Below are positions 13,718 through 13,790 of a DNA stretch of 64,000 nt, piece by piece. This DNA is from Escherichia coli (GTDB taxonomy: Bacteria > Pseudomonadota > Gammaproteobacteria > Enterobacterales > Enterobacteriaceae). The DNA is taken from the NCBI RefSeq assembly GCF_024700885.2, contig NZ_CP117016.1, one strand, 5' to 3'. The notes under the pieces were generated by a model. That model ran no database searches and was not told the origin of the DNA. It saw nothing but the letters and a program-made list of their open reading frames with translations. Both the position numbers and the translations under genes were made by a program. Positions within the stretch are counted from its first letter, which is position 1, and the number at the start of each line of letters is the position of its first letter.

Positions 13718-13738
13718 TACAGGCTACCTTCGGATACA

Positions 13739-13790
13739 GCGTTCACGCCGCATCCGACATCTTTTGCCTGATGCGTCTTATTTACGCCCC
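13739..13790. repeat. Degenerate REP-like remnant between convergent yhfK and argD
   Basis: gttcacgccgcatccg is the reverse complement of the REP core cggatgcggcgtgaac; the adjacent gcctgatgcg is also REP-like. Truncated relative to full REP elements. Confidence 0.4.

Follow-up and report, generated by a model that had tools for sequence, protein, structure and literature searches.

Few bacterial repeats are as well catalogued as REPs (repetitive extragenic palindromes) and BIMEs (bacterial interspersed mosaic elements), and incomplete copies of them are expected. REPs were reportedly described as mRNA stabilisers by Newbury et al. in 1987. The E. coli Y-type REP (PU/REP family; Stern/Higgins, Gilson/Bachellier) is present in many copies per genome, and we counted 43 REPs in 308 kb of MG1655. 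BIME-2 units consist of a y REP, a short S linker, and a z2 REP (Bachellier et al.; Ton-Hoang et al., 2012, PMC3333891), and binding and cleavage by TnpA-REP in vitro need the GTAG tetranucleotide together with a two-base mismatch in the stem (PMC3333891). At the RNA level, REPs stabilise the upstream mRNA (reviewed in PMC12306157), and the ends of Rho-dependent transcripts are cut back as far as stable hairpins without U-tracts, many of which are REPs (24%; PMC6061677). REPs located less than 16 nt from a stop codon cause ribosome stalling, mRNA cleavage, and trans-translation, according to the summary of Liang, Rudd and Deutscher (2015) given in PMC12306157. The only BIME-based model in Rfam is naRNA4 (RF02564). 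The element described here is a partial member of the known Y-REP/BIME-2 family, and nothing about it falls outside known REP biology.

The element lies between the convergent genes yhfK and argD in a 64-kb stretch of E. coli DNA, the whole of which was analysed and is referred to as the window; by annotation, its surroundings are the E. coli crp-yhfK-argD-pabA region. The yhfK gene (plus strand) ends with a TAA stop codon at 13715-13717 and argD (minus strand) spans 13782-15002, with its own TAA at 13782-13784, so the gap between them is 64 bp long (13718-13781); it reads tacaggctaccttcggatacagcgttcacgccgcatccgacatcttttgcctgatgcgtcttat. The preliminary description had the size of the gap right, but the span that it gave (13718-13790) runs 9 nt into argD. 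The features of the gap and its flanks, in window coordinates, are:

~11615-11830, plus strand: crp 3' end and Rho-dependent region in yhfK (placed from MG1655 3486794 and 3487001)
13715-13717, plus strand: yhfK stop codon TAA, 12 nt upstream of the Y hairpin
13718-13729, no strand: residual left flank tacaggctacct (alignments with MG1655 and the outgroups)
13720-13724, no strand: CAGGC, predicted partner of GCCTG at 13766-13770 in a 5-bp outer helix (folds)
13730-13757, minus strand: Y-type REP stem-loop, with its head GtCGGATGCGGCG on the minus strand (nhmmer, exact 16-mer, folds, inverted repeat)
13759-13765, no strand: 7-nt head-to-head linker atctttt of the short S type (MG1655 BIME linkers; PMC3333891)
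13766-13781, plus strand: truncated Z2 REP, its head GCCTGATGCG (13766-13775) fused to TCTTAT (13776-13781) (strain SCU-387 and the outgroups L016 and L017)
13782-13784, minus strand: argD stop codon TAA, abutting the Z2 remnant

The counterpart gap in MG1655 is 66 bp (NC_000913.3 3488894-3488959). Over 701 bp around the gap, the window showed 100% identity with strain 1190; for most of 5425 complete genomes the figure was about 96-97%. The window lineage is uncommon, as 28 of these 5425 genomes were at least 99% identical over the 701-bp stretch (13300-14100 area) and most were 95-99% identical. The annotated start of yhfK varies, giving a gene of 2103 bp in MG1655 and of 2091 bp in PGAP records. 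The MG1655 RefSeq annotation held no repeat_region feature in 49 kb around the locus. This silence on a REP at yhfK/argD is uninformative, because the REP pair that a pattern scan found in the yaaX-yaaA gap at MG1655 5565-5669 (1566-1670 of our record L004) is also unannotated in RefSeq. Our search for literature on yhfK together with argD returned only an unrelated Salmonella crp paper.

Published Term-seq data place the 3' end of the crp terminator at MG1655 3486794 (plus strand), 3 nt inside the annotated MG1655 start of yhfK, and a Rho-dependent region inside yhfK at MG1655 3487001 (plus strand) (PMC7815308). Together these two signals suggest that yhfK transcription is weak and arises by read-through from crp. 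In the E. coli ST131 strain 5506 (L012 1-2599), ISEc23 (IS66-family) is inserted in yhfK and a 102-nt 3' stub of the gene adjoins the REP gap; yhfK is therefore dispensable in that strain.

The preliminary description had quoted two strings from the gap, the reverse complement of the REP core and gcctgatgcg, and both are there, at 13741-13756 and at 13766-13775. The first, gttcacgccgcatccg, is the exact reverse complement of the 16-mer REP core CGGATGCGGCGTGAAC, so that the core lies on the minus strand. To represent REP families we used a library drawn from 308 kb of MG1655 at unlinked loci, in which 20 of the 43 REPs were of Y type. A profile HMM of these 20 Y REPs (nhmmer) matched 13731-13759 on the minus strand with 20.9 bits (E 1.7e-5), covering profile positions 2-30 of 36, and this was the top-scoring Y match in the whole window. 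The best scores in 100 simulated 64-kb windows (Markov-1, same dinucleotide statistics) had a mean of 6.8 bits, an sd of 1.7, and a maximum of 12.1. In the alignment to a REP family library that the preliminary description had proposed as a check, the similarity is thus above background, and the REP is real.

The Y stem-loop has arms at 13730-13741 and 13746-13757 and a loop at 13742-13745. Transcribed in the argD sense, the hairpin forms 12 consecutive pairs (two of them G.U) closed by a UGAA loop, with a predicted energy of -20.2 kcal/mol on its own compared with -21.3 kcal/mol for a canonical Y REP hairpin. The stem-loop is therefore complete, although it had been described as not a full palindromic REP; only the outer foot and the tag are missing. 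In the yhfK sense the hairpin is weaker, at -11.4 kcal/mol, with the G.U positions turned into two A.C mismatches. The whole gap folded to -27 kcal/mol in the argD sense (z=-4.2 against shuffles) and gave z=-2.6 in the yhfK sense. Read in the argD sense, the hairpin begins 24 nt downstream of the argD stop codon; read in the other sense, it begins 12 nt after that of yhfK. In both RNA senses it is enclosed by the predicted CAGGC/GCCTG outer helix, which starts 2 nt after the yhfK stop codon and whose positions were invariant in seven E. coli alleles and absent from the outgroup L016.

Compared with the Y-type REP family, the window copy agrees with the consensus along 29 of the 36 positions of the profile, and the exact CGGATGCGGCGTGAAC falls within this stretch. 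Like the family, it is an extragenic imperfect palindrome at the 3' ends of convergent genes, here wholly inside the 64-bp gap, and its RNA folds asymmetrically between the strands, with G.U pairs in one sense and A.C in the other. It differs from the family in having lost the outermost GGCC foot and the GTAG/CTAC tetranucleotide; the tag site reads ...ctaccTTCGG in the window and ccGTAGGTCGG or ccGTAGATCGG in the outgroups. It also carries CAG where the consensus has AGG. As a result the canonical AA-opposite-GC mismatch in the stem is gone, and ACAG instead gives two A.C (or G.U) positions kept apart by a C-G pair, whereas the MG1655 Y copy keeps the canonical AAGG. Judged against the in-vitro requirements published for TnpA-REP, the DNA of the element would no longer be a substrate of the REP-associated transposase. 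The element is probably inert for mobility, since both GTAG/CTAC tags are gone and the CAG variant has altered the mismatch in the Y stem.

The second string, GCCTGATGCG on the plus strand, did not reach significance by itself (E about 0.5-1). The Y REP (minus strand) ends at 13758, a 7-nt linker follows, and this string begins at 13766 on the plus strand. The same head-to-head Y/Z2 geometry was found in five MG1655 pairs, which have the 7-nt linkers acttatt, atctgtt, aaccgat, and aaccaac; atctgtt is identical to the window linker atctttt at 6 of 7 positions. At the Z2 position strain SCU-387 carries GCCTGATGCGACGCTGACGCGTCTTAT, from which it follows that GCCTGATGCG joined to TCTTAT in the window is a Z2 REP without its 11-bp centre. 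The linker geometry, the intermediate SCU-387 allele, and the intact outgroup orthologues together identify the second fragment as a Z2 head. Of about 36 nt, the remnant retains 16; deletion has removed the 11-bp centre ACGCTGACGCG together with 16 nt of tail and flank (CAGGCCTAC...). By sequence comparison, then, the gap is a decayed BIME-2 unit made up of a Y REP and the first third of a Z2 REP, with a 7-nt S linker between them. The preliminary description had called it an eroded REP, which we refine to an eroded two-REP unit with intact orthologues in the outgroups and an intermediate form in about 3.6% of E. coli.

The window unit shares with the BIME-2 units of MG1655 the inverted, head-to-head arrangement of Y and Z2 and the 7-nt linker. 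However, its Z2 REP is incomplete, without the centre, tail, and CTAC, and both tags for TnpA-REP are absent. BIME-2 tandem arrays did not occur here, as every genome examined, outgroups included, had a single unit. The naRNA4 model aligned end to end (1-77) with window positions 13728-13788 at 20.4 bits (E 0.43), which is below its gathering score of 59.5 bits. The element thus has the two-hairpin Y-linker-Z2 layout of naRNA4 and REP325-derived RNA over the full model, but its second hairpin cannot form and it gave no hint of a nucleoid-associated role. The RF02564 model in effect recognises any BIME-2 unit. The other Rfam matches nearby (mir-H20, SBWMV2 pseudoknot, and ZEB2_AS1) were far below thresholds and were set aside as chance.

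An inverted repeat also prompted us to consider a third REP in the 3' end of yhfK, with gcgtaatacaggctac as a Z2 tail and tgcgggattcg as a head. We rejected this candidate, as the segment aligns to the non-REP flank gcagagcgaacc in L016, the profile gives nothing there, and the C-terminus of YhfK (..WLSRKLRDSKA) is conserved in the outgroups.

We compared the gap across strains and related species. The outgroups, L016 and E. albertii (L017), both carry a complete Y(GTAG...)-7nt-Z2(...CTTATCAGGCCTAC) unit at the orthologous site, in gaps of 108-109 bp. L016 is labelled E. coli, but its argD DNA is only 91% identical to that of the window (92% for E. albertii), so it represents a different species-level lineage of Escherichia. 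Judging from these orthologous copies, the ancestor of Escherichia had a complete unit, in a gap of about 108 bp. Within E. coli sensu stricto the gap takes forms of 77, 66, and 64 bp, for which we infer at least four deletion events. On the yhfK side, the net loss of 15-17 nt comprises the GTAG tag, the outer Y foot, and about 11 nt of the outgroup flank. On the argD side 16 nt were lost, corresponding to the Z2 tail CAGGCCTAC..., and the 11-bp Z2 centre was lost in about 96% of genomes by a deletion across the inner hairpin, between flanking GCG direct repeats. The window allele has lost 2 further nt (AA) relative to MG1655. In the alignment of the series the deletions were limited to the non-coding gap, and both stop codons and both C-termini were intact.

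The allele with a long Z2, which keeps the 11-bp centre, matched at 99% or more in 194 of 5426 genomes (about 3.6%). The corresponding count was 2899 for the MG1655 allele and 34 for the window allele, the shortest seen. The naRNA4 score decreased along the series from 68.9 bits in L016 and 61.1 bits in L017, both above the gathering score, to 44.2 bits in SCU-387 (long Z2) and 20.4 bits in the window. The Y profile likewise gave 39.7 bits for L016, 31.9 bits for MG1655, and 20.9 bits for the window. The gap alleles were about 90-93% identical over 88-90 bp compared with about 96-97% over the 701-bp region, so the gap is more polymorphic than the genes. The tail arm of the Y REP varies among alleles (AAGGCA, ACAGCG, and GAGGTG). 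A 31-nt core at 13745-13775, which runs from the head arm through the linker to the Z2 head, did not vary among seven diverse E. coli alleles and was almost unchanged in the outgroups. In both senses every sampled allele still forms a hairpin (-11 to -21 kcal/mol), and the segment was retained in more than 5170 of 5426 genomes.

In Pluralibacter, Enterobacter asburiae, Siccibacter, Cedecea neteri, and Shimwellia, yhfK and argD are separated by 0-3 bp, with no repeat and no hairpin. These repeat-free gaps indicate that the BIME is a lineage-specific insertion into an originally tight junction and is decaying in E. coli. In Citrobacter spp. (L018-L020 and L048) a forward GCCGGATGCGCTACGCTTATCCGGCCTAC adjoins yhfK, followed in some species by a second, inverted REP; the REPs and their arrangement differ from those in Escherichia, which suggests that the same convergent gap was colonised independently. 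The locus offers a clean natural deletion series at one site, from a complete BIME through the 77-, 66-, and 64-bp forms to an empty junction, and it shows how a BIME decays after loss of its transposase tags. The natural alleles could be used to ask whether a single REP hairpin makes any difference to the stability of two convergent mRNAs.

The surviving Y hairpin would form part of the 3' UTR of each of the two convergent mRNAs. There, if it acts at all, it would most likely block 3'->5' exonucleases, setting and protecting the 3' end of the argD mRNA and, more weakly, that of yhfK, while termination itself would occur further downstream, either through Rho or by polymerase collision. A stabiliser role, which the preliminary description had offered beside termination, is plausible for this hairpin by analogy with other REPs, and we give roughly an even chance to its being a passive 3'-UTR stabiliser that acts as an exonuclease barrier for argD mRNA. 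The hairpin resembles the protective 3' stem-loops of Dar and Sorek (2018, PMC6061677) in being stable, GC-rich, free of a U-tract, and located just past a stop codon, and here too a Rho-dependent region lies further downstream on the plus strand. This region, defined from bicyclomycin data at MG1655 3489306 (plus strand), is 347 nt past the gap and antisense to argD, with a Rho score of 4.33 (p 6.7e-9) and 106 reads in its upstream window without bicyclomycin compared with 321 with it (PMC7815308). It is consistent with plus-strand transcription running on past the REP gap, and an internal antisense promoter in argD may be the source of the transcription that reaches it. The hairpin differs from the protective stem-loops in that the Term-seq data of PMC7815308 map no 3' end to it; the curated 3' ends for LB at OD 0.4, LB at OD 2.0, and M63 included none in MG1655 3488000-3490999 on either strand, which low expression could explain. 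This result, the hairpin-free junctions elsewhere, and the continuing shrinkage of the gap count against any function. What speaks for one is indirect, namely the hairpin kept by all sampled alleles and the unvarying 31-nt core. The yhfK/argD pair works without a hairpin, given the 0-3 bp gaps of the related genera.

A bidirectional intrinsic terminator for both convergent genes, as the preliminary description had suggested, is very improbable. Stable structure is predicted on both strands, and the only U-rich stretch in the gap, UCUUAUUUA on the plus strand, follows an alternative head-to-head hairpin, CGCAUC...GAUGCG, of -8.6 kcal/mol. We rejected this combination as an intrinsic terminator, because the hairpin is weak, is out-competed by the stabler Y hairpin, and is missing from the minimum-free-energy fold, and because a terminator consensus scan of both strands of the gap found neither it nor any other site with a hairpin and U-tract. 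In the argD sense the sequence after the hairpin is AAGGUAGCC, which has no U run, and the d'Aubenton-Carafa discriminant, calculated by hand, was clearly negative. With the Rho-dependent region 347 nt further on, no Term-seq 3' end at the gap, and genera that have no hairpin, a terminator role is unsupported, and the element should be labelled in annotation as a partial BIME-2 (Y REP plus truncated Z2) and not as a terminator. The possibility that a GC-rich gap resembles a REP merely by chance is negligible. The pattern GCCKGATGCGRCGY with up to two mismatches occurred 10 times compared with 6.1 expected from shuffles, so that the window is no richer in it, and the Z2 head alone is insignificant; however, counts of such a short degenerate pattern do not discriminate, and profile methods are needed. 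The profile score (20.9 bits, with no simulated window above 12.1), the exact 16-mer core, the complete orthologous BIMEs in the outgroups, and the intermediate allele within E. coli refute chance resemblance.

The remnant might instead be a neutral fossil, that is, a functionless piece of BIME whose hairpin has simply not been deleted yet, perhaps with occasional gene conversion from other REPs. The stepwise shortening from 108 to 77, 66, and 64 bp, the hairpin-free gaps of other genera, the lack of a called Term-seq 3' end, the higher polymorphism of the gap than of the flanking genes, and the three variants of the Y tail arm all agree with this reading, and we take it as a serious possibility, albeit one that we doubt. 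It accounts less well for a hairpin that persists in both senses in every sampled allele, for the invariant 31-nt core, and for a segment kept in more than 5170 of 5426 genomes, and the deletions have removed the surroundings of the Y hairpin but never the hairpin itself. An effect on translation is unlikely. Here a ribosome terminating on yhfK would collide with the hairpin and stall, leading to mRNA cleavage and trans-translation. As summarised in PMC12306157, the spacing of the translation-regulating REPs of Liang, Rudd and Deutscher (2015) would include the yhfK stop codon, 12 nt from the hairpin and 2 nt from the predicted outer helix, but not that of argD at 24 nt. In L016 the yhfK stop codon is followed after 24 nt by the GTAG tag, and in the window the hairpin lies 12 nt from that codon, so that deletion has moved it into range. 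However, in the window allele the yhfK-sense hairpin is weak (-11.4 kcal/mol, two A.C mismatches), and yhfK itself seems to be poorly transcribed, given the 3' end at 3486794 and the Rho region at 3487001. A more elaborate proposal is that the BIME deletions were non-random and sculpted the unit to a minimal module of Y hairpin and invariant 31-nt core, in which switches between G.U and A.C (CAG in the window, AGG in MG1655, and GAGGTG in ST131) would tune the protection of argD against that of yhfK and the 12-nt spacing would add translational down-regulation of YhfK; we consider this decidedly improbable.

Other REPs were seen in and around the window. The yhfZ-trpS gap of MG1655 (3512487-3512631; L003 47488-47632) holds an intact BIME-1-like pair, in which a Z1 REP, a 27-nt linker, and a Y REP follow one another, and the window has only a 15-nt junction at this place (37281-37295); E. 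coli strains are thus polymorphic here for the presence of an entire BIME. A single REP, GCCGGATGCGATGCTGGCGCATCTTATCCGGCCTAC, in the frlR-yhfS gap (29620-29657, minus strand) was the one fully intact copy that we found in the 64-kb window; it scored 32.6 bits with a profile of all REPs. A degenerate pair at 50144-50241 consists of a Y-like copy, CGGATACGGCGTGAAC (50145-50171, plus strand, E 0.011), and, tail-to-tail with it at about 40 nt, a Z1-like copy, GCCTGATGCACAACGCTTATCAGGCCTGT (50211-50241, minus strand). This pair looks like a second eroded BIME.
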